DNA from: Bacteroidota bacterium
Lineage (GTDB): Bacteria > Bacteroidota > Rhodothermia > Rhodothermales > UBA10348
Assembly (NCBI GenBank): GCA_029262855.1
Contig: JAJCYP010000115.1
Coordinates: 119-64,118, forward strand
Length of the DNA: 64,000 nt
Reading direction: 5' to 3'
Part shown: positions 11,728 to 30,469 of the stretch, piece after piece
How the letters are laid out: every line of letters starts with the position of its first letter
Numbering within the stretch: position 1 is the first letter of the stretch
Program-made: the position numbers and the translations under genes
The notes under the pieces: model-generated
Told to the model about the DNA's origin: nothing
Databases searched by the model: none
The model's input: the letters and a program-made list of their open reading frames with translations, nothing else

Positions 11728-13677
11728 TTATACGCGATTTTTCCGGTTGGCGATCAGTTCATCGACCACGGCCGGATCGGCCAGTGTGGAGATGTCTCCC
11801 AGATTGGCGTGCTCGTTGGCGGCAATCTTTCTCAGCAGGCGGCGCATGATTTTTCCGCTCCGTGTTTTCGGGAGTCCCGGCGAGAACTGGATGAAGTCCG
11901 GGCTGGCGATGGGCCCGATCTGCACCCGGACCTGGTGCACGAGCGCCCTTCGGAGATCATCCGAAACCTCGACCCCTGCGTTGAGGGTCACGTAGCAGTA
12001 GATGCCCTGCCCCTTGATCGAATGGGGATATCCGACCACCGCGGCTTCGGCCACGGACGCATGCGCGACGAGCGCACTTTCGACCTCGGCCGTGCCCATT
12101 CGGTGGCCAGAAACGTTGATCACGTCGTCCACGCGGCCGGTGATCCAGTAGTACCCGTCCCGGTCCCGCCGGGCGCCATCGCCCGTGAAGTACTGCCCTT
12201 CGAATGCGGTGAAATAGGTCTTGATGAATCGGGGGTGGTCCTTGTAAAGCGTTCTCGCCTGACCCGGCCAGGAGCCCGCAATGGTCAGCAGGCCCTCGGC
12301 CTCGCCTCGCAGCTCCTTTCCTTCGGCGCTCAGGATCATCGGCCGGATGCCGGGGAACGGCAGCGTGGCACTACCGGGCTTCGTATCGACGGCACCGGGC
12401 AGGGGCGTAATCATGATGCCGCCCGTCTCGGTCTGCCACCACGTATCGACGATGGGGCACCGGCCGTCTCCCACCACCTCGTGGTACCAGCGCCAGGCTT
12501 CGGGATTGATGGGCTCTCCGACCGTTCCCAGAAGACGGAGCGAGCTCCGACTGGTCTCTCTTACGAACTCGTCGCCCTGGCGCATGAGCGCGCGAATCGC
12601 GGTCGGGGCCGTGTAGAACTGATTGACCTCGTGGGCATCCACCACCTGCCAGAAACGCGATGCGTCGGGATAGGTGGGGACGCCTTCGAAGAACACCTGG
12701 GTCGCCCCGTTGAGCAGCGGGCCGTACACCATGTACGAATGCCCGGTAATCCACCCTACGTCGGCGGTGCACCAGAAGACATCGCCCTCGTGGTAATCAA
12801 ACACCAGTTCGTGGGTCAGCGAGGTATAGACCTGATAGCCGCCCGTGGTGTGAAGCACGCCCTTCGGTTTCCCGGTCGATCCGCTCGTGTACAGAATGAA
12901 GAGCGGGTCTTCGGCGTCCATGGGCTCGGCAGGGCATTCGGCACTGACCCGTTCACGGGCCTCGTGGTACCAGAGATCCCGGCCATCCTCCCAACCAACA
13001 TGGCCACCGCTACGGCGCACCACGACCACGGTGTCGACGTCAGGGCACTGCTTCAGCGCCTCGTCGGCATTTGACTTGAGGGGTACCCTCCCCCCGCCGC
13101 GGAGGCCCTCGTCGGCAGTCAGGAGCACCGTGGAATCGCAGTCCTTGATGCGATTCGCCAGCGCCTCGGGAGAGAATCCGGCAAACACAACCGAGTGGAC
13201 CGCTCCAATCCGCGCGCAGGCCAGCATGGCCACCGCCGCCTCGGGGATCATCGGCAGGTAGACGGTGACCCGGTCTCCCTTCTTGACGCCCCGCGATTTC
13301 AACACGTTCGCGAAGCGGCACACGTCCTCGTGGAGTTCGCCGTAGGTGACATGACGGGCCGCCTCGCTGGGATCGTCAGGCTCGAAGATCAACGCGGTCT
13401 GGTCCCGCCGAGTCTCCAGATGGCGATCCAGGCAATTGTAGGCTGCGTTGGTCTTTCCTCCCAGGTACCACTGGATCGAGACGCTATCTGATGCAAAAGA
13501 CACGTCCCGCACCTGCGTGAACGGCTCAAACCAGTCTATCCGTTTGGCCTGCTCAGCCCAGAACGAGTCGGGGTCGGCGACGCTTCGCCGGTACAGCGCA
13601 TCATAGGCCGCACGCGAACTCAGGTGGGCGCCGGCACGGAACGAAGATGGGGGCGGGTAAGACTTGGACATCGGCAC
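11728..13677 (-). CDS. acs: Acetyl-CoA synthetase
   Basis: [54 protein letters not shown]. Confidence 0.97.
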
Positions 13678-13967
13678 TCAGTTGGTGTCTCGGCAGAATA
13701 CTCCCGGCGGACGGTTGGACTCAAGCTTGGATAAGACTTGCCGGTGCGCGTGACGGGGGGTAATCTGAGCCTGAACTCGCCAGCTGGTCAGAGGCGGACG
13801 CAGCACCGGCCTCCCCCGAGGACTGAGAACGAATCAACGAGATCGGTCGAAGGTTTGCCGAATTGGGGGGCACCGGGGAATCAACTCCGATCCGGGGATC
13901 GGGAAAAGCGTAAGAATGGGCTATTGATTCGAATTGAACCGCAGTGCGGTTTATACAGCCAAGCAAC

Positions 13968-14678
13968 ATGAAGCGCGAACACCTCAATTGGTGGAGTCCG
14001 AGTCTGGGAAGACAGATGGAACTCCTGGCTTTCGGCTACGCAGGCATCCCCATCCTGGCCTTCCCCAGCAGCATGGGTCGCTATTTTGAATGGGAGGATT
14101 TCAAAATGGCCGAGGCGCTCAGCCATCAGTTGGAGAACGGATACAATCAGCTGATCTGCGTGGATTCGGTTGACTCCGAGTCGTTCTACAACAAGCATGT
14201 GGACCCATTCGTCCGCATCAAGCGCTATCAGCAGTACGAGGCCTACATCATCAGCGAGGTGGTGCCCTTCATCCGCGAGCGTAGCGAGAACGGGTTCATC
14301 ATCGCGGCGGGTGCCAGTTTCGGCGCGTATCACGCCAGCAACATGGTGTTCAAGCATCCCCATCTCTTTGGGAAGCTGATCGCGCTCAGCGGTGCGTTTG
14401 ACATCAAGTCCTTCATGGACGGTTTTTATAACAACGATGTCTATTTCAACAACCCGATTGACTACATGTCCGGACTCGGCGACGCGGACATGATCAAGGC
14501 CATCGATGCCAATTCGATCGTGCTTACTATTGGAGAAGGCGACCCCTGCAAGGAGGCAAATTTCTCGATGAGCCGCATCCTCGACGCCAAAGGCATCAGC
14601 CACAACCTGGATATGACGCCCGGATTCGGCCACGACTGGCCCTTCTGGCGGGATCTCATTCGCAAACACGTCGCCTGA
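13968..14678 (+). CDS. Esterase family alpha/beta hydrolase
   Basis: WWSPSLGRQMEL N-terminus, GASFG nucleophile elbow, GHDWPFW catalytic His; start taken at MKREHL. Confidence 0.85.
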   Translation: MKREHLNWWSPSLGRQMELLAFGYAGIPILAFPSSMGRYFEWEDFKMAEALSHQLENGYNQLICVDSVDSESFYNKHVDPFVRIKRYQQYEAYIISEVVPFIRERSENGFIIAAGASFGAYHASNMVFKHPHLFGKLIALSGAFDIKSFMDGFYNNDVYFNNPIDYMSGLGDADMIKAIDANSIVLTIGEGDPCKEANFSMSRILDAKGISHNLDMTPGFGHDWPFWRDLIRKHVA

Positions 14679-14701
14679 ACAGGCCGAGAAGACCAGCAAC
14701 C

Positions 14702-15664
14702 ATGGCGAAGAAGCAGCAGCAAAAGAAGAAGACCAACCGCCGCATCGGCATCCTCCGCGGGATGGAGACCACGTTCCCCGATGCCCTGATACCGTACATC
14801 AACGAGACCTACGGGCATCTCGGCGTGAAGGCGGACTTCGTGATGCTGGACAGTATCACGACGGATTCCGAGCGGGAGTACGACGTCATTCTCGACCGGA
14901 TCTCGCACGAAGTGCCTTTCTACCGATCGTTCCTCAAGTGGACCGCGATCAAGGGCACGTACGTGGTGAACAACCCCTTCTGGTGGAGTGCCGATGACAA
15001 GTTCATCGACAATCTTATCGCCGAGGAGGTCAAGGTTGCCGTACCCAGGTCGGCCATCGTCCCCCACAAGGACCATCCGCCGAATACGCAGGCCGCCTCC
15101 TTCCGCAATCTGAAGTATCCCATCAACTGGGATTCTCTGTTCGAATATATCGGCTGGCCGGCCTTCCTGAAGCCGCATGATGGTGGCGGATGGCGCGGTG
15201 TCACCCGCTGTGAAACGCCGCAGGAGGTGTTCGATGCCTACGACGAGTCTGGCGACGATTGCATGATGCTCCAGGAGGGCATCGAGTTCGAGTCCTATTT
15301 CCGCTGCTACTGTGTTGGTCAGAAGGAAGTCCGCATCATGCGGTACAACCCGCTCGCAGAGCCACACCGGCGGTATCACGATGTGCCAACCGAGCCCATT
15401 TTTCCGGATCTGTACAAGAAGATCGAGCGCGACGTCCTGGCCATCTGCACGGTGCTCGGCTACGACCTGAACACGGTGGAATTTGCCGTGCGTGACGGAG
15501 TCCCGTACGCGATAGACTTCATGAATCCGGCTCCCGACGCGGACTACCACGCCGTCGGACTTGAGAACTTCGAGTGGATCGTCAAGACCATGGCCGAGTT
15601 CCTGGTCAAGAAGGCTCGCCAGCCCAACCGGAAGCGTCAGTGGTCCGGGACAATCATCGACTAA
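14702..15664 (+). CDS. ATP-grasp amide/peptide ligase (RimK/glutathione synthetase-like)
   Basis: DDKF, FLKPHDGGGWRGV, MLQEGI, VEFAVRDGVPYAIDFMNP. Confidence 0.85.
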   Translation: MAKKQQQKKKTNRRIGILRGMETTFPDALIPYINETYGHLGVKADFVMLDSITTDSEREYDVILDRISHEVPFYRSFLKWTAIKGTYVVNNPFWWSADDKFIDNLIAEEVKVAVPRSAIVPHKDHPPNTQAASFRNLKYPINWDSLFEYIGWPAFLKPHDGGGWRGVTRCETPQEVFDAYDESGDDCMMLQEGIEFESYFRCYCVGQKEVRIMRYNPLAEPHRRYHDVPTEPIFPDLYKKIERDVLAICTVLGYDLNTVEFAVRDGVPYAIDFMNPAPDADYHAVGLENFEWIVKTMAEFLVKKARQPNRKRQWSGTIID

Positions 15665-15685
15665 TGTCCTACGGAGCTTCCGCGC

Positions 15686-17044
15686 ATGCGAGCTGACATC
15701 ACACCGGCCATCGCCTACTATCACAGCCTGATCGAGAAGGATCTGGCTGGTGCTGACGACCAGCTCAAGCAGCTGGTCGGGCTGCAGCACGACCGGCGGG
15801 CCATGTTCGGTGACCGGCCGATGTCGCATAGCCTTCGCCCGACATTTCTGGCGGATACGATGTACTCCGAAGTCCAGGACACGGTCTACCTGATTCGGCA
15901 GGCGGTTCTGCGCATCGCGGCCCGGTTCTTTGCGGACCCGACCCTGCTCCGGGAGGAGTTGGGACTTCAGGAGTGGGAAATCGAACTCGCCTCGATTCCG
16001 ACCAACGTCATCCGGCTGTCGGCGACGTCGCGGATGGACTCCTTCCTGACGAAGGACTCGTTCAAGTTCGTCGAGATCAACGGGGAGTCCCCGGCCGGCA
16101 TCGCGTACATCCACGAACTGGCCGCGATCTACCGCGAGCTGCCGGTCTTCCGGGAGTTCACCAAGCGGTACCCGGTCCGATTCGTCTCGCCGCTCTTCCA
16201 CACGGTGGATGGGCTCCTGCGGGCATATCACGAGGAATTTGAGGGCACCGAAGAGCGGCCGACCTTCGCGATCGTGGATCACCTGGACGTGCCCACCATC
16301 CACGAATTCCACCTGGTCAAGGAGTACCTCGAACGCGTGGGAATGGAATGCGAAATCTGCGCCCCTCAGGAGCTTGAGTGCAAGGATGGATGGATCTACG
16401 CCAATGGCAAGAAGATCGATATCCTGTATCGGCGCCTGCTCCTGAATGAGTACTACGCCATGCGGGACGAATGCCCTGCCTTCCTGGAGGGCTACAAGGC
16501 CCAGAAGACGTGTTACCTGAATACGTTCAGGACCAAGCTCGTCCACAAGAAGGCGCTGTTCGCCATTCTGACGGATTCGAAATACACAGACTTCCTGTCG
16601 CCCGAACAGAAGTACGCCATCGGAGCCCATATTCCCTGGACGCGGCTACTTCGTCCCGAGCGGACGTCGTTCCGCGGCCTGCCGATTGATCTGGTAGAGT
16701 TCGTCCGTGCGAACCGACAGTTCTTCGTCCTCAAGCCGAACGACGAGTACGGCGGAACGGGCGTATCCCTCGGTTTTGCGTCCACCCAGTCAGAATGGGA
16801 TGACGCAATTGCCATCGGACTCAGGGATCGGCATGTCGTGCAGGAGACGGTGGATATTCATCGCGAGCCGTTCCTGATGCAGACCGGGTCGGACTGGAAG
16901 TCTGTGCCGTCGGTCATCGACCTGGATCCGTACCTGAACGGACCGCTTCTGGGTGGCTGCCTCACCCGTACGTCGGCCACCAACCTGGCGAACGTAACCG
17001 CCGGCGGCGGGACCCTTCCCATGTTCATCCTGCGTTACCACTGA
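15686..17044 (+). CDS. Circularly permuted ATP-grasp ligase (CP-ATP-grasp type 2-like)
   Basis: RMD...FKFVEINGESPAG lies N-terminal to DILYRR, IPWTR, VLKPNDEYGGTGV, VVQE and a terminal ANVTAGGG, i.e. the permuted motif order. Confidence 0.82.
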   Translation: MRADITPAIAYYHSLIEKDLAGADDQLKQLVGLQHDRRAMFGDRPMSHSLRPTFLADTMYSEVQDTVYLIRQAVLRIAARFFADPTLLREELGLQEWEIELASIPTNVIRLSATSRMDSFLTKDSFKFVEINGESPAGIAYIHELAAIYRELPVFREFTKRYPVRFVSPLFHTVDGLLRAYHEEFEGTEERPTFAIVDHLDVPTIHEFHLVKEYLERVGMECEICAPQELECKDGWIYANGKKIDILYRRLLLNEYYAMRDECPAFLEGYKAQKTCYLNTFRTKLVHKKALFAILTDSKYTDFLSPEQKYAIGAHIPWTRLLRPERTSFRGLPIDLVEFVRANRQFFVLKPNDEYGGTGVSLGFASTQSEWDDAIAIGLRDRHVVQETVDIHREPFLMQTGSDWKSVPSVIDLDPYLNGPLLGGCLTRTSATNLANVTAGGGTLPMFILRYH

Positions 17045-17084
17045 GTTCGCAGTCCACCCTGCCTGACACCAGACGGAATTATCG

Positions 17085-17939
17085 ATGGCGCTTTCGCCGC
17101 TGCGCATTGCAGTAATTGATCTCTACAATCGTTTTCCGGGCGAGGGCATGCGGGCCATCCGCGAGCTCCTTGAGGCGAACGAGCACCTGGCCGGCGAGGC
17201 CGGATTCGAGGTAGAGATTTTCGAGACCCGGTTCGACGGGTCGATTCCCGACACCTCGTTCGACGTCTATATCTCTACCGGTGGGCCGGGGAGTCCCTTT
17301 GACGGTCAGGGTCAGGACTGGGAGAAGCGGTACTTCGATTGGCTGGACGCCATTCGCGCGCACAACACCACGCCGGGAAATACACCGCGCAGCGTGCTGT
17401 TCATCTGCCACTCCTTCCAGATGATGGTGCGCCACTTCGGTCTCGGATCCGTGATCCCCCGCGGAAGCCGCTCGTTCGGAATCTTCCCTGTGCACCCCAC
17501 GGCAACCGGCCTCCGCGATCCGCTTTTTGACGGGATTGGGAATCCTTTTTTTGCGGCGGATTTTCGCGACTGGCAGGTGGTTCAGCCCAACATGGAGGCC
17601 ATCGAGGAATTGGGCGGCTCGGTGCTCGCCATCGAAAAAAGGCGTGACAATGTGCCACTGGAGCGGGCCGTGATGGCGATTCGGGTTTCGCCGCACCTTG
17701 TCGGAGTACAGTTTCACCCCGAGGCCGACCCTCCGGGTATGGGCCGCCACTTCCGCAAGCCGACCCTCGAAGACAAGATTGTCATGGAGCACGGCAAGGA
17801 GAAGTATGACCGCATTCTGAAGCGCCTGGATGACCCGGCCTTCCTCAAACGGACCCATGACGCCGTGATACCGCGATTCCTTCGCGACGCTGTGGCCAAA
17901 TCCAGACCGGAACTGGCCGCGGTCCTGCGGGGAGCGTAG
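17085..17939 (+). CDS. Class I glutamine amidotransferase-like protein
   Basis: STGGPGSP oxyanion strand, ICHSFQ nucleophile Cys, GVQFHPE His-Glu. Confidence 0.88.
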   Translation: MALSPLRIAVIDLYNRFPGEGMRAIRELLEANEHLAGEAGFEVEIFETRFDGSIPDTSFDVYISTGGPGSPFDGQGQDWEKRYFDWLDAIRAHNTTPGNTPRSVLFICHSFQMMVRHFGLGSVIPRGSRSFGIFPVHPTATGLRDPLFDGIGNPFFAADFRDWQVVQPNMEAIEELGGSVLAIEKRRDNVPLERAVMAIRVSPHLVGVQFHPEADPPGMGRHFRKPTLEDKIVMEHGKEKYDRILKRLDDPAFLKRTHDAVIPRFLRDAVAKSRPELAAVLRGA

Positions 17940-18289
17940 TGACCCGCTTCGATCATCCCGAAGAGCCAGACTATGAGGTACTGGTCGAGGAGGTCGTTGA
18001 CAGCGAAGTGCGACCCATCCACGTGCCGCCCTACCACGTGATCCTGTTCGATGACGACTCGCACACGTACGAGTACGTCATCGAAATGCTCATCGACATC
18101 TTCGGGCACTCGCTGGAGCGGGCCTTCACCATGGCCCGGAAGGTCGACGCCGCGGGTTGGGTGGTGGTAGACACGACTACCCGGGAACGGGCCGAGCTGA
18201 AGCGCGACCAGATCCACGCCTATGGCGCTGACTGGCGGATAGAGCACTGCAAAGGGTCGATGTCGGCCACGGTAGAAGAGGCAGAATAG
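17939..18289 (+). CDS. clpS: ATP-dependent Clp protease adaptor ClpS (divergent pocket)
   Basis: PPYHVILFDDDSHTYEYVIEML..IFG..LERA...AELK, ending in SATVE; GTG start shares a base with the upstream TAG. Confidence 0.85.
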   Translation: MTRFDHPEEPDYEVLVEEVVDSEVRPIHVPPYHVILFDDDSHTYEYVIEMLIDIFGHSLERAFTMARKVDAAGWVVVDTTTRERAELKRDQIHAYGADWRIEHCKGSMSATVEEAE

Positions 18290-18384
18290 AGACCTTGGGG
18301 CCTTTTGGGCGGTTATTCTCAGTGACCCGGGTCGGGAGGCTCTATCTTGGGACGTTGCAGTAACCAACCAAAATGGGGGGAATC

Positions 18385-18606
18385 ATGGGTACCAAGAGTA
18401 TTGTAGGCATCGTGCTGATTGTCGTCGGCATTCTCGGGTTCGTGTTCGGAGGCATTCCATTCACATCACAGGAGACCATCGTGGATATCGGGCCGCTCGA
18501 AATGACGGCCGAACAGGACAAGACGTTTCCGCTCGCTCCGATCGCGTCGGGCCTCATCCTGATCGGCGGGGTCTATCTGGTGGCAACCGGCAGAAAAGAA
18601 GGCTGA
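18385..18606 (+). CDS. Small 2-TM membrane protein (DUF3185-like)
   Basis: IVGIVLIVVG...VDIGPLE...PLAPIASGLILIGG; an alternative start at 18373 is possible. Confidence 0.7.
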   Translation: MGTKSIVGIVLIVVGILGFVFGGIPFTSQETIVDIGPLEMTAEQDKTFPLAPIASGLILIGGVYLVATGRKEG

Positions 18607-18736
18607 GTCCAAGGGGCAGCGCCCCTTCACCACCGGATCATGCTCTACCGGCCTCACCCGCGTCTCCTCCCCCCGAGGCGCGGGTGAATCCTTTTCAGGG
18701 CTGATCCGTCTTCTGATGTAGCCCAACCCGACCCCT

Positions 18737-20278
18737 ATGCGCCGGATTCTACCCGCCCTTTTGATGACGCTCCTGATTGGCCCGGCCCGGGGCCAGTCTT
18801 CCAGTGTGGTGGAAGCCATCTACCAGGAAGGTACCGAGCGGTCCCAAATCGTGGACCTGGCGCAGTACCTGGCGGACGTCATCGGGCCGCGATTGACCGC
18901 TTCACCCGGCCACGAGCGGGCCATTGACTGGGCGATGGCACAGCTTGGCAATTGGGGAATCAGCTCCACACGCGAAGCGCAGGGCACATGGCGGAGTTGG
19001 CGGCGCGGACTGGTGAGCCTCGATCTCATTGAGCCGCGCCTTCGATCACTCGAAGGCCAGCTATTGTCCTGGAGTCCAGGGACGGAAGGATCCGTCGAGG
19101 GGGGTGTGATCACGCTGCCCGACCTGCGTGGTGCCGAGCAGTTCCGCAACTGGCTGGCGATGGCGGAGGGCCAGTTCGTCCTGCTCTCAGCCTACGAGCC
19201 TACTTGTCGACCAGCGGCCGTTTGGGAGGAATACGGAGGCGCCGCCGCCCGTTCCGAGTTTGAGGCCCGAAGAAAGGCCGCTCGGGATGCATGGCAGACT
19301 CGCGTCAGTAATCTCGGACTCACCAATCAGGAGATCGTCGACGAGTTGGAAGCGGCCGGAGTCGCGGGCTTCTTCACCAACCTGTGGACCGGCGAGCGAG
19401 GGACTGACCGGGTATTTCCCCTTTCGTACTCATTCCGCGGCGCCATGAATCACCGGGCCGCCGCGTTCAATCTGAGCTGCGAGGACTACGGACTCCTGTA
19501 CCGACTCGCCGAGAGAGGTCAAGGGCCGGTGGTTCGGGCGTACGGGGAGGCAGAACATCTGGGTGAAACCGCGGCCCACAACCTGATCGCCGTGATCCCT
19601 GGCAGGGAGTTGCCGGGCGAATACGTGCTGCTCTCCGCGCATTTCGATGCGTGGGACGGTTCGAGTGGCATGACCGATAACGGGACGGGAAGCGTCACCA
19701 TGATGGAGGCGGCCCGCATTCTGAAGCTGCATTATCCCAACCCCCGACGCACGATCATTGTCGGCCTCTGGAGCGGCGAGGAGCAGGGACTCAACGGATC
19801 GAGAGCCTATGCAGCCGATCATCCGGAGGTGATCGATGGGCTGCAGGCCCTGTTCAATCAGGACAACGGCACCGGGCGCATCGCACGCATCGACATGCAG
19901 GGGCTGACTGGTGCCCTACCGCACTTCAAGCGCTGGTTCAACCGGATTCCTCGCGGTCTGGTCGAGGGCATCGAACTCGTCGCCCCCGGATCACCTGGGC
20001 AGGCCGGATCTGACTATGTCAGCTTTGTCTGCGCGGGTGCACCGGCTTTCAACCTGGCCTCCGACGAGTTTGACTATCGCGACGGAACGTGGCACACCAA
20101 TCGCGACACGTTTGACAAGATCTCTCCCGACGATCTTCGCGACAATGCGACGCTGGTTGCGCTTCTGGCCTACCTGGCAGCGGAGGGCGAACGGTTGCCG
20201 CGCGCGCGTGACTCCCGCGATGAATGGCCGACGTGCCAACTCCCCGACCGATCCACCGGCGACCGATTCCGGGAGTAG
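18737..20278 (+). CDS. Exported M28 family metallopeptidase (carboxypeptidase Q-like), copy 1
   Basis: Signal peptide; [42 protein letters not shown] zinc-ligand motifs. Confidence 0.9.
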
Positions 20279-28264: not shown

Positions 28265-28844
28265 GGGGGATCCGATTGGAGCGACTACGGTCAGTCCTGA
28301 TGAGGCGCGCGACCTGCTACCCGGACACATTCAGTCCAGGGCAGATCTCAACGTTTGGGAGCAGCAAAACATTCTTGAGGCGGCACGGTGGGCGAAAACC
28401 AATCGAGCCGACCCGCTTGAGGAGTCGTTCGTCCGGGAACTGCATCGCCGGATGTTTGACCAGACTTGGAGTTGCGCAGGACGATATCGCCTTTCCGACA
28501 AGAACATCGGTGTCACCTGGCCGGGCATTCCATCGGAAGTCCGGAATCTGCTGGACGATGGAAGATATTGGTTCCTACACGGGACGTATCCGGTGGACGA
28601 AGCTGCCCTTCGCCTGCATCATCGGATGGTCAAGATCCATTTGTTTCCGAACGGCAACGGCAGACACGGCCGGCTATGGTGCGACACCCTGTTGCGAAAC
28701 TTGAAACGACCTCCATTCGCATGGAAGGCTCGGGACCTTGATAACGATGGAGACGCGCGCTCGGAGTACATCCATGCACTTCGACGCGCGGACAGCGGTG
28801 ATTACACCAGGCTGATTGACCTATTCCTGAGCGGGCGCGAATGA
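28257..28844 (+). CDS. Mobile mystery protein B (Fic domain)
   Basis: LNVWEQQNI, LHRRMF..TW..AG.YR, Fic motif HLFPNGNGRHGR, YIHALRRAD. Confidence 0.9.
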   Translation: MTEGDPIGATTVSPDEARDLLPGHIQSRADLNVWEQQNILEAARWAKTNRADPLEESFVRELHRRMFDQTWSCAGRYRLSDKNIGVTWPGIPSEVRNLLDDGRYWFLHGTYPVDEAALRLHHRMVKIHLFPNGNGRHGRLWCDTLLRNLKRPPFAWKARDLDNDGDARSEYIHALRRADSGDYTRLIDLFLSGRE

Positions 28845-28894
28845 CTTGGACCCTCCTGCGATATATTCGACACCCTCACCAATCCGATTCGACC

Positions 28895-30469
28895 GTGTCC
28901 AGACTTCCCCTGATTCTCCTCGCGCTGGTCCTCGTCCGCCCCGCCTCAGCCCAGACGTTTCCGACCGGCGACGAAACGCTGAAGGCCATCTGGACGGAGA
29001 CCAATGACAACTCCCATCTCTATGGGCTGGCGCAGACCCTGGCGGACTCCATCGGGCCGCGTCTGACGGCATCTCCGGCCCACCTGGCGGCTGTCAACTG
29101 GGCAGTCGACACATTCCGGGGATGGGGCATCGACGCGGACAAGGAATCCTACGGCACGTGGCGAGGCTGGGAGCGTGGCGTCTCGCACATGGATCTGGTT
29201 GCCCCACGCGTCCGATCCCTGGAAGCCGTCATGCTCCCCTGGAGCGTCGGCACAGGCGGGCTGAAATCGGGCGGCGTGGAGGTCCTCCCCGCCCTCGAGG
29301 GTCGCGCGGCCTTCGACGCGTGGCTGGCGAACGCCAGCGGCAAGTTCATACTTCTCTCGGCGCCTGAAGCCAGCTGCCGCCCAGCCGATGTCTGGGATGA
29401 AGTCGGACGCGACGGCGCGACCGAGGCGTTCAATGATGCCCGGCAGGAGGCCCGCTCGGCGTGGACCCGCCGGATCGCGGATCTCGGATACTCGACGCAA
29501 GAAATTGTCGACGCCCTGGAGGCCGCTGGCGCTGCCGGCTTCATTACCAACTATTGGACCGGAGCCCGCGGCACGGATCGTATTTTCCCGCTGACCTACT
29601 CGTTCCGCGGCGCGATGAACCGTAAGGCCGCCGCATTCAATCTGAGCTGTGAGGACTACGGGCTCGTCTATCGGCTGGCCGAGAATGGCGATGCCCCCAT
29701 GCTGCAGGCGAGGGCCGTGTCCCGCGATCTGGGCGAAGTGCCGGTCTATAATGTGGTGGCGAAGATTGAGGGCTCCGATCTGGCCGGCGAAGTCGTGCTC
29801 CTTTCGGCCCACTACGATGCCTGGGACGGCGGCTCGGGGATGACAGACAACGGCACGGGCTCCGTGGTGATGATGGAGGCCCTTCGCGTTCTCAGGAAGG
29901 TGTTACCGAATCCACGGCGCACGATCATGGTGGGCCTCTGGAGCGGCGAAGAGCAGGGACTCAACGGCTCCCGCGCCTTTGCCGCGGACCATCCGGAGAT
30001 CGTCGAGAACCTTCAGATTGTGCTCAATCAGGACAACGGCACGGGTCGCGTTCAGAGCATCTCGACGCAGGGACTCGTGGATGCGGGCGGGCGGTTTGCC
30101 AACTGGTTCGCCCGTATGCCCTCCGAACTGGTCGGCGACATTGATCTGAACGTGCCGGGCTCACCCGGAAGCGGTGGCAGCGACTACGCCGCGTTCATCT
30201 GCGCCGGCGCACCGGCGTTCAGCCTCTCCTCACACCGGATGGATTATTTCAACGCCACATGGCACACCAACCGCGACACGTTCGACAAGGTGGCGTGGGG
30301 TGACCTCAGAGGCAATGCCACGCTGACGGCCATGCTGGCTTATCTCGCGTCTGAAGGCGAGGCAATGCCTCGGACCCGCCGCGACCTTGGGCTGACCCAG
30401 GCGGGCGCCGCCCGTGCATGGCCTGAGTGTCAGGACGGAGCGCGGGAAACGAGCGATCGTTTTCGCTAG
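28895..30469 (+). CDS. Exported M28 family metallopeptidase, copy 2
   Basis: Signal peptide from GTG 28895; [31 protein letters not shown]; close paralogue of 18737-20278. Confidence 0.9.
   Translation: MSRLPLILLALVLVRPASAQTFPTGDETLKAIWTETNDNSHLYGLAQTLADSIGPRLTASPAHLAAVNWAVDTFRGWGIDADKESYGTWRGWERGVSHMDLVAPRVRSLEAVMLPWSVGTGGLKSGGVEVLPALEGRAAFDAWLANASGKFILLSAPEASCRPADVWDEVGRDGATEAFNDARQEARSAWTRRIADLGYSTQEIVDALEAAGAAGFITNYWTGARGTDRIFPLTYSFRGAMNRKAAAFNLSCEDYGLVYRLAENGDAPMLQARAVSRDLGEVPVYNVVAKIEGSDLAGEVVLLSAHYDAWDGGSGMTDNGTGSVVMMEALRVLRKVLPNPRRTIMVGLWSGEEQGLNGSRAFAADHPEIVENLQIVLNQDNGTGRVQSISTQGLVDAGGRFANWFARMPSELVGDIDLNVPGSPGSGGSDYAAFICAGAPAFSLSSHRMDYFNATWHTNRDTFDKVAWGDLRGNATLTAMLAYLASEGEAMPRTRRDLGLTQAGAARAWPECQDGARETSDRFR

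Follow-up and report, generated by a model that had tools for sequence, protein, structure and literature searches.

A conserved esterase, ATP-grasp ligase and GATase gene cassette of Rhodothermales with a genus-specific clpS neighbor

The stretch of DNA analyzed here (64,000 nucleotides (nt) of contig JAJCYP010000115.1, from a Rhodothermales genome that is 98.95% complete; hereafter the window) carries five closely packed open reading frames (ORFs) on the plus strand, which encode a candidate esterase (est1), a predicted classic ATP-grasp ligase (grasp), a predicted circularly permuted ATP-grasp ligase (cp), a class I GATase-fold protein (gat) and a ClpS-family adaptor (clpS) (Table 1). An earlier note on this DNA (the original prediction) had proposed that the five genes form either a protein-tagging system tied to proteolysis, with the ligases as writers of a tag, the GATase and esterase as its erasers and ClpS as its reader, or a pathway that yields a storage peptide or one resembling glutathione. 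We found that the conserved unit consists of est1, the classic ATP-grasp gene, the permuted ATP-grasp gene and gat, usually followed by a second esterase gene (est2), and that clpS is probably not part of it.

The spacers between the first four genes are 23, 21 and 40 nt long. The longest frame for est1 opens at a GTG at 13944, not at 13968, and the last base of the gat stop codon TAG (17937-17939) is the first base of the earliest possible clpS start, a GTG at 17939. An in-frame GTG 66 nt further downstream is an alternative clpS start, with which gat and clpS would be spaced by 65 nt; the two genes are co-oriented and close whichever GTG is used. The ORF coordinates thus bear out the layout of the original prediction (five co-oriented genes, the same three gaps and a 1-nt gat/clpS overlap), and family matches together with fold searches of both ligases show that it had also named the five proteins correctly (esterase, ATP-grasp, CP-ATP-grasp, GATase and ClpS), with three of the five family assignments weak on sequence alone. 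No signal peptide was seen when the N-termini of the five proteins were inspected by eye, as had been stated. A 722-residue antisense frame (14462-16630, minus strand) that overlaps both ligase genes was rejected as a high-GC shadow ORF, because the plus-strand genes have homologues and folds and the frame is supported by its length alone.

Table 1. Features of the locus, with the five-gene stretch first and the flanking features after it (positions are those of the window)
Feature	Position	Strand	Basis and remarks
est1, putative esterase D / CE1-type alpha/beta-hydrolase	13968..14678	+	PF00756, catalytic triad; first cassette gene
Predicted classic ATP-grasp amide ligase, RimK / LysX-ArgX / Ddl-like fold	14702..15664	+	Profile and predicted structure
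Predicted circularly permuted ATP-grasp ligase, CP_ATPgrasp_2-like	15686..17044	+	Eukaryotic glutathione-synthetase-like predicted fold
Stand-alone class I GATase-fold protein	17085..17939	+	PF00117, Cys-His-Glu triad
ClpS-family adaptor, divergent but highly conserved subfamily	17939..18289	+	PF02617; not counted as a cassette component
Acetyl-CoA synthetase (acs)	11728..13677	-	NF001208, 1056 bits; divergent upstream neighbor
Hydrophobic 77-residue small ORF	18373..18606	+	Weak TctB-like Pfam match, E 0.0087
Terminator-like hairpin and T-rich tail	18654..18687	+	13-pair stem, 9 G-C; between the small ORF and the M28 gene
M28 family peptidase	18737..20278	+	PF04389, E 1.6e-34; 447 nt after clpS

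The gene order was compared across 39 loci (36 distinct), of which 17 came from a scan of one genome per species and 22 from genomes of the same order. Thirty distinct loci, counted after removal of three duplicates, encode a permuted ligase at least 57% identical to that of the window, and these come from Rhodothermales, Balneolales and metagenome-assembled genomes labeled Chitinophagales or Deferribacteres. Most of the 30 keep est1, grasp, cp and gat in this order, and est1 lies upstream of the ligase genes in most related loci. The gene 3' of gat is est2, encoding a second PF00756 esterase of about 315 residues, in 18 of the 30 loci, clpS in four, and neither in eight, of which the two that were checked carry a PBP1C or transglycosylase gene at this position. 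A PBP1C-type transglycosylase/transpeptidase gene directly follows the GATase gene in two genomes from different families (L044:2839-5217, minus strand, and L045:8700-9500, plus strand). At lower identity, three loci whose ligase is 35-37% identical keep est1 and grasp, with no GATase detected, and the gene for a 41% identical acidobacterial homologue (L017:3301-6725) is followed by genes for a PilZ protein, a 180-residue unknown protein and a GCS2 ligase, a set of partners unlike that of the window. The permuted ligase is patchily distributed, being present in 57 of the 151 genomes that we sampled from the order, two complete genomes among them.

Searches for further components gave negative results. 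A survey of 34 cassette loci turned up no conserved small ORF as a possible gene for a carrier or precursor; the recurrent small ORFs there are shadow frames of neighboring genes, so that the earlier remark that no precursor peptide ORF is evident stands. In the window's own genome, est2 was not found with a Chitinophagales query, and tblastn with six est2 proteins returned just paralogues of 26-31% identity on two other contigs. A GCS2/YbdK ligase gene beside cp was found neither in the window cassette nor in the related loci, which agrees with the carboxylate-amine ligase having been described as absent from the cassette. The check for such a ligase elsewhere turned up only an unlinked GCS2-CBS fusion, the sole GCS2-like gene of the genome; this 642-residue protein, encoded on another contig (G000:C71:9690-11618; L064:1366-3294), has a GCS2-like carboxylate-amine ligase region and two CBS domains.

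The position of clpS after gat is far more restricted than the cassette. A ClpS hidden Markov model run over the 39 loci matched only L004 (same contig as L041), L012, L013 and L040, and the ligases of all clpS-bearing loci are 84-94% identical to that of the window. Among the 151 genomes, with a threshold of E <= 1e-31 for a ClpS orthologue, this ClpS subfamily was found in 28 and both ClpS and the permuted ligase in 20; 37 genomes have the cassette without the detected subfamily, and eight have the subfamily without the cassette. clpS adjoins the cassette in three of the 20 genomes that hold both, all three of the window's genus, and in the other 17 the two lie about 0.89 Mb apart (one complete genome) or on separate contigs (16 genomes). 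At 14 Rhodothermales ClpS loci no cassette gene was found within about 6 kb of ClpS (0/14), and the neighbors vary, with thioredoxin, Dus and others at loci other than the four at which a DinB_2 gene stands immediately beside the ClpS orthologue (L031, L037, L042 and L043, from genomes that are probably mutually related). Likewise, no cassette gene is present at any of the 80 metagenome loci that represent the subfamily, of which 53 include at least 1 kb and 30 at least 3 kb of upstream sequence.

In the nearest genome outside the genus the order is pckA, acs, est1, grasp, cp, gat, PBP1C and M28, and since PBP1C stands there between gat and M28, the clpS position appears to be a local replacement. 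The best explanation is that clpS came to lie after gat in one genus, at a site taken by est2 or PBP1C elsewhere. In this genus clpS is probably co-transcribed with the cassette, yet probably not a functional part of it. The part of the original prediction that made clpS a member of a conserved tagging operon is therefore not upheld across lineages, and the survey of clpS linkage that it had proposed came close to the outcome it had named as refuting, adjacency in this genome only, with the adjacency found in one genus. A full-text literature search found no paper linking circularly permuted ATP-grasp enzymes with ClpS.

The ClpS protein of the window is itself divergent. It matches PF02617 with 63.2 bits (cut-off 23) and is below the cut-off of all 10 NCBIfam ClpS equivalogs, the best giving 37.6 against 143. 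Its subfamily has 6015 matches, and 59-76% identity persists in KSB1 and Calditrichota records. The pocket of Escherichia coli ClpS is described, in the portion of PMC8346999 that deals with it, as including N34, D35, T38, M40 and H66; in the alignment to it, these five positions of the window protein read Asp, Asp, His, Tyr and Asp (N34D, T38H, M40Y, H66D, with D35 kept), so that the protein does not carry the canonical E. coli N-degron pocket set. Among 18 subfamily members D35 and His38 are invariant, Tyr40 and Asp66 are nearly invariant and position 34 is variable. The pocket is altered but not necessarily dead, because the N-domain of UBR1, an N-degron binder, likewise has Asp at the H66 position according to the same portion of that paper (PMC8346999). 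The subfamily also has a conserved C-terminal extension with the consensus AYGADWRI followed by HC.GSMSA. A second ClpS gene of the genome (97 residues; G000:C29:13575-13868, L002:1429-1722) shares 4 nt with the end of purS on a different contig, and its product retains Asn and His where the E. coli protein has N34 and H66. A ClpA-like gene is likewise carried by another contig. At nine of 94 ClpS loci (L068-L147 among them), clpS directly follows, in the same orientation, a gene that belongs to a single neighbor cluster, and three of the four members of this cluster that were scanned against Pfam are FHA-GAF-PP2C (SpoIIE) phosphatases.

Turning to the enzymes of the cassette, est1 matches PF00756 with 27 bits (cut-off 22), and all 13 aligned sequences share Ser117 (in GASFG), Asp192 and His222, in line with the Ser-nucleophile esterase that had been predicted. 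In a profile search of solved structures the nearest entries were putative and ferulic-acid esterases, with no informative close relative, and we assign the est1 product to the esterase D / CE1 type, as a small alpha/beta-hydrolase of the cytoplasm. The GATase matches PF00117 with 28.9 bits (cut-off 22.8), and its C108 (in ICHS), H211 and E213 (in QFHPE) are invariant in 12 of 12 aligned sequences, which confirms the predicted Cys-His-Glu triad. No close relative by sequence was found when its profile was searched against solved structures, and it would act either as a gamma-glutamyl/amide hydrolase or as an ammonia donor.

The classic ATP-grasp ligase has no match in Pfam, and its score of 28.1 bits against the NCBIfam RimK family TIGR00768 is far under the cut-off of 143.4; by the curated score it is not a member of the RimK family. 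All 13 aligned sequences have K157, the GGG loop (G161-G163), D272 and N275. In the profile alignment these residues fall on ATP-binding and Mg-binding residues of D-Ala-D-Ala ligase (Ddl), namely its Lys, Gly loop and Glu/Asn, and of pyruvate carboxylase, with the spacing from D272 to N275 one residue longer. The profile matches the ATP-grasp cores of biotin carboxylase and of Ddl. The predicted structure (predicted local distance difference test score (pLDDT) 80.6) has at least 500 matches in the PDB at E <= 0.001. RimK, Ddl and ArgX stand at the top, with template-modeling (TM) scores of 0.65-0.72 to RimK and 0.66-0.74 to ArgX and with Ddl about equal to RimK. MdnB and MdnC, macrocyclases of ribosomally synthesized and post-translationally modified peptides (RiPPs), are also among the top fold matches. 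The model thus places the protein in the ATP-grasp superfamily, with the predicted classic topology, and because RimK, ArgX/LysX and Ddl match about equally, the fold leaves the choice between a protein and a small-molecule substrate undecided.

The permuted ligase scores 23.4 bits against Pfam PF14403, under the gathering cut-off of 32, and a search of the whole genome with PF14403 gave no match. Many of its orthologues bear PF14403 or PF04174 as precomputed domains; being under the cut-off yet having many orthologues annotated as PF14403, it is best regarded as a borderline, divergent member of that family. Modeled from a 54-sequence alignment (mean pLDDT 95.1), it has its best fold matches in the human, soybean, yeast and potato glutathione/homoglutathione synthetases (TM 0.66-0.74), followed by the fungal ligase Cp1B, the structural-genomics protein 3n6x, E. 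coli YgiC/YjfC, GspS and trypanothione synthetase; 2hgs, 3kal, 9cjn, 3n6x, 7uk8 and 2io7 match the model at probability 1.00. The sequence profile likewise finds 3n6x, Cp1B, GspS and YgiC/YjfC, and all top fold matches are small-molecule ligases. The PDB entries matched at probability 1.00 are known from the literature to be permuted in topology. The predicted structure therefore assigns the ligase a fold of the glutathione-synthetase/GspS type. The claim of two amide ligases of differing topology with intact motifs is supported by the predicted folds and by the catalytic residues, which are invariant in all four cassette enzymes.

The flanks of the locus include syntenic neighbors and a stretch of local sequence. 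acs is syntenic in L004, L013, L040 and L044, which belong to the same family of the order, and lies within 3 kb in L062 and L063, and pckA is also found upstream of the cassette on the opposite strand. Downstream of clpS, a stretch of about 390 nt (18295-18685) that contains the 77-residue ORF and has the strong terminator-like hairpin at its end is without a counterpart in the close relatives L012, L013 and L041, as judged by DNA alignment, and the sequence shared with L012 begins with the 3' arm of the hairpin. About 45 nt 5' of the M28 start, the motif GAATCCTTT (18686-18694) is identical in the window, L012, L013 and L041, in surrounding DNA that has diverged, and it may be a promoter element. 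The N-terminus of the M28 peptidase resembles a signal peptide by eye; its gene comes after clpS in four close relatives, and we consider it a syntenic neighbor and not a member of the cassette. An M28 paralogue that is 58% identical lies 8.5 kb away in the window (28841-30469), and a third copy (44%) is on another contig.

Several known systems resemble parts of this locus. Iyer, Abhiman, Burroughs and Aravind (Mol Biosyst 2009) reportedly predicted, by computation, gene neighborhoods around CP_ATPgrasp_2 (PF14403). Like the present one, these neighborhoods are reported to join a permuted ATP-grasp gene to further amide ligases and hydrolases with an uncharacterized product, and the acidobacterial 41% homologue, two genes from a GCS2 carboxylate-amine ligase, fits the same pattern. 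They differ in that the partners here are a classic ATP-grasp ligase, a GATase and one or two PF00756 esterases, with no GCS2/YbdK, and in that the PF14403 match is below the cut-off. Our full-text literature search found no paper naming PF14403, and no treatment of the cassette was found within part of the literature citing the title 'Amidoligases with ATP-grasp'. We conclude that the locus is one more instance of a system known from computation and not yet touched by experiment, here with a neighbor confined to one genus, and that the conserved cassette is still experimentally uncharacterized.

Among characterized enzymes, eukaryotic glutathione and homoglutathione synthetase (2hgs, 3kal, 1m0w) is the best fold match of the permuted ligase over the whole chain, and it is a permuted ATP-grasp enzyme that extends a gamma-glutamyl dipeptide by one amino acid. 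The sequence identity is just 13-16%, however, and the genome has bshC and no PF04262 gshA. GspS, YgiC/YjfC and Cp1B (2io7, 7uk8, 7uk6, 9cjn) match by profile and by fold, but with profile E values of just 1e-5 to 1e-9, and the window ligase lacks the CHAP amidase domain of GspS and has other operon partners. According to the sections of PMC12568646 that mention them, the small carboxylate that these enzymes use is glutathione, a peptide or epoxysuccinate, and they join it either to an amino acid or to spermidine: Cp1B couples epoxysuccinate with an amino acid, and YgiC/YjfC are cited as peptide-spermidine ligases. RimK and LysX/ArgX are top folds of the 320-residue classic ATP-grasp ligase (TM 0.65-0.75), but the family cut-off is missed, no S6-like or LysW-like partner lies nearby and Ddl scores equally. 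As to clpS, aat adjoins clpS-clpA in proteobacteria, where clpS is thus paired with an enzyme that creates N-degrons. The window is similar in that clpS lies directly downstream of peptide-bond-forming enzymes, and differs in that clpA is not adjacent (the ClpA-like gene being on another contig), the adjacency does not extend beyond the genus and the ClpS subfamily is divergent.

From the gene order, the conservation of the cassette, the folds and the catalytic residues, we infer a cytoplasmic pathway for the synthesis and recycling of a small compound, glutathione-like, gamma-glutamyl or peptide-amine in type, with ClpS separate from it, and we hold this reading with somewhat more confidence than doubt. 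In the reaction order that we propose, the two ligases would act in turn, each activating a carboxylate as an acyl phosphate and joining it to an amine to give such a compound. The Cys-His-Glu enzyme would cleave the amide bond of the product, as PuuD and gamma-glutamyl hydrolases do, or would provide ammonia, and the serine esterases may hydrolyze the product when it is present as an ester or thioester; together these enzymes would trim, amidate or recycle it. The glutathione-like or storage-peptide option of the original prediction fits this evidence. Its model of a writer, eraser and reader of a protein tag rests on a clpS adjacency confined to one genus and is unsupported by conservation.

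Several observations weigh against this small-molecule pathway, or against the separation of ClpS from it. The product is unlikely to be the main cellular thiol, because bshC is present in the genome and PF04262 gshA was not found in a genome search; a housekeeping glutathione role was judged unlikely for this reason, and a glutathione-like accessory compound was retained. Two PF02955 matches lie elsewhere in the genome. The classic ATP-grasp ligase is about as near in fold to RimK and LysX/ArgX, which modify the C-termini of proteins, as to Ddl, and its substrate is possibly a protein or peptide encoded elsewhere. The clpS gene abuts gat (1-nt overlap, or at most 65 nt) and lies within a few bases of it in three of four close relatives, which makes co-transcription, and hence a local functional tie, plausible. 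Finally, the ligase and ClpS co-occur in more genomes of the order than expected (20 against 10.6); these relatives are not independent, and the excess is gone at the family level, where both occur in nine of 27 families against 9.1 expected.

An unlikely alternative is that the target of the cassette is a C-terminus, that of a protein or of a ribosomal peptide whose gene lies elsewhere, which it would modify as RimK, LysX or RiPP ATP-grasp enzymes do, with no role for ClpS. The presence of RimK, ArgX/LysX and MdnB/MdnC among the top folds of the classic ATP-grasp ligase, and its weak match to the RimK family, would suit such a role, but the RimK cut-off is far missed (28 against 143 bits), the fold search puts Ddl about level with RimK, the partner ligase belongs to the glutathione-synthetase type, and neither a conserved small ORF nor a LysW-like carrier or precursor occurs near the 34 cassette loci.

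We consider it quite improbable that the cassette builds and degrades a non-ribosomal storage or osmoprotective polymer of the cyanophycin or polyglutamate kind, in which the ligases would extend backbone and side chains and the hydrolases would mobilize the polymer. Two differing ligases with up to three hydrolases in one operon, the patchy distribution typical of an accessory trait, and RimK, a maker of poly-alpha-glutamate, as a top fold match are what such a polymer would lead one to expect; against this, no likeness to cyanophycin synthetase, CapB or PgsB appeared in family, profile or fold searches, and the structural relatives of the permuted ligase carry out a single ligation on small substrates.

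The protein tag read by ClpS, in which the ligases would write a tag (for example an N-terminal one), the GATase and esterase would erase it and ClpS would pass the tagged protein to ClpAP, is very improbable: it could draw on the same-strand position of clpS directly 3' of gat (with the 1-nt overlap if the longest ORF is correct), on the retention of this arrangement in four close relatives, on the resemblance of the classic ATP-grasp ligase to the protein-modifying RimK and LysX/ArgX and on the ClpA-like gene elsewhere in the genome, but the adjacency is limited to one genus or close relatives (4/30 loci and 3/20 genomes, with 0/80 metagenome ClpS loci carrying a cassette gene), cassette and ClpS subfamily occur without each other in 37 and eight genomes of the order, family-level co-occurrence gives no signal, an esterase or PBP1C gene takes the clpS position in other lineages, and the characterized structural relatives of the permuted ligase are all small-molecule enzymes.

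Taken together, these results mean that the built-in link to ClpS proteolysis, which had been the special feature of the locus, fails in comparative genomics. A narrower, genus-specific version, which we consider very improbable, is that est2 was lost, that clpS, encoding the divergent adaptor, became the last gene of the operon, and that ClpS may then have been recruited to the pathway, for instance to deliver to ClpAP either the ligases themselves or an adduct that they make at an N-terminus or side chain; if true, this recruitment would be a lineage-specific link of a peptide-ligase system with N-degron proteolysis. Independently of the cassette, the ClpS subfamily is large and strongly conserved, has an altered N-degron pocket and may merit study by itself. 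The cassette is widespread in Rhodothermales and neighboring lineages and has intact active sites, which makes it a reasonable target in the search for a new small peptide or amide metabolite.

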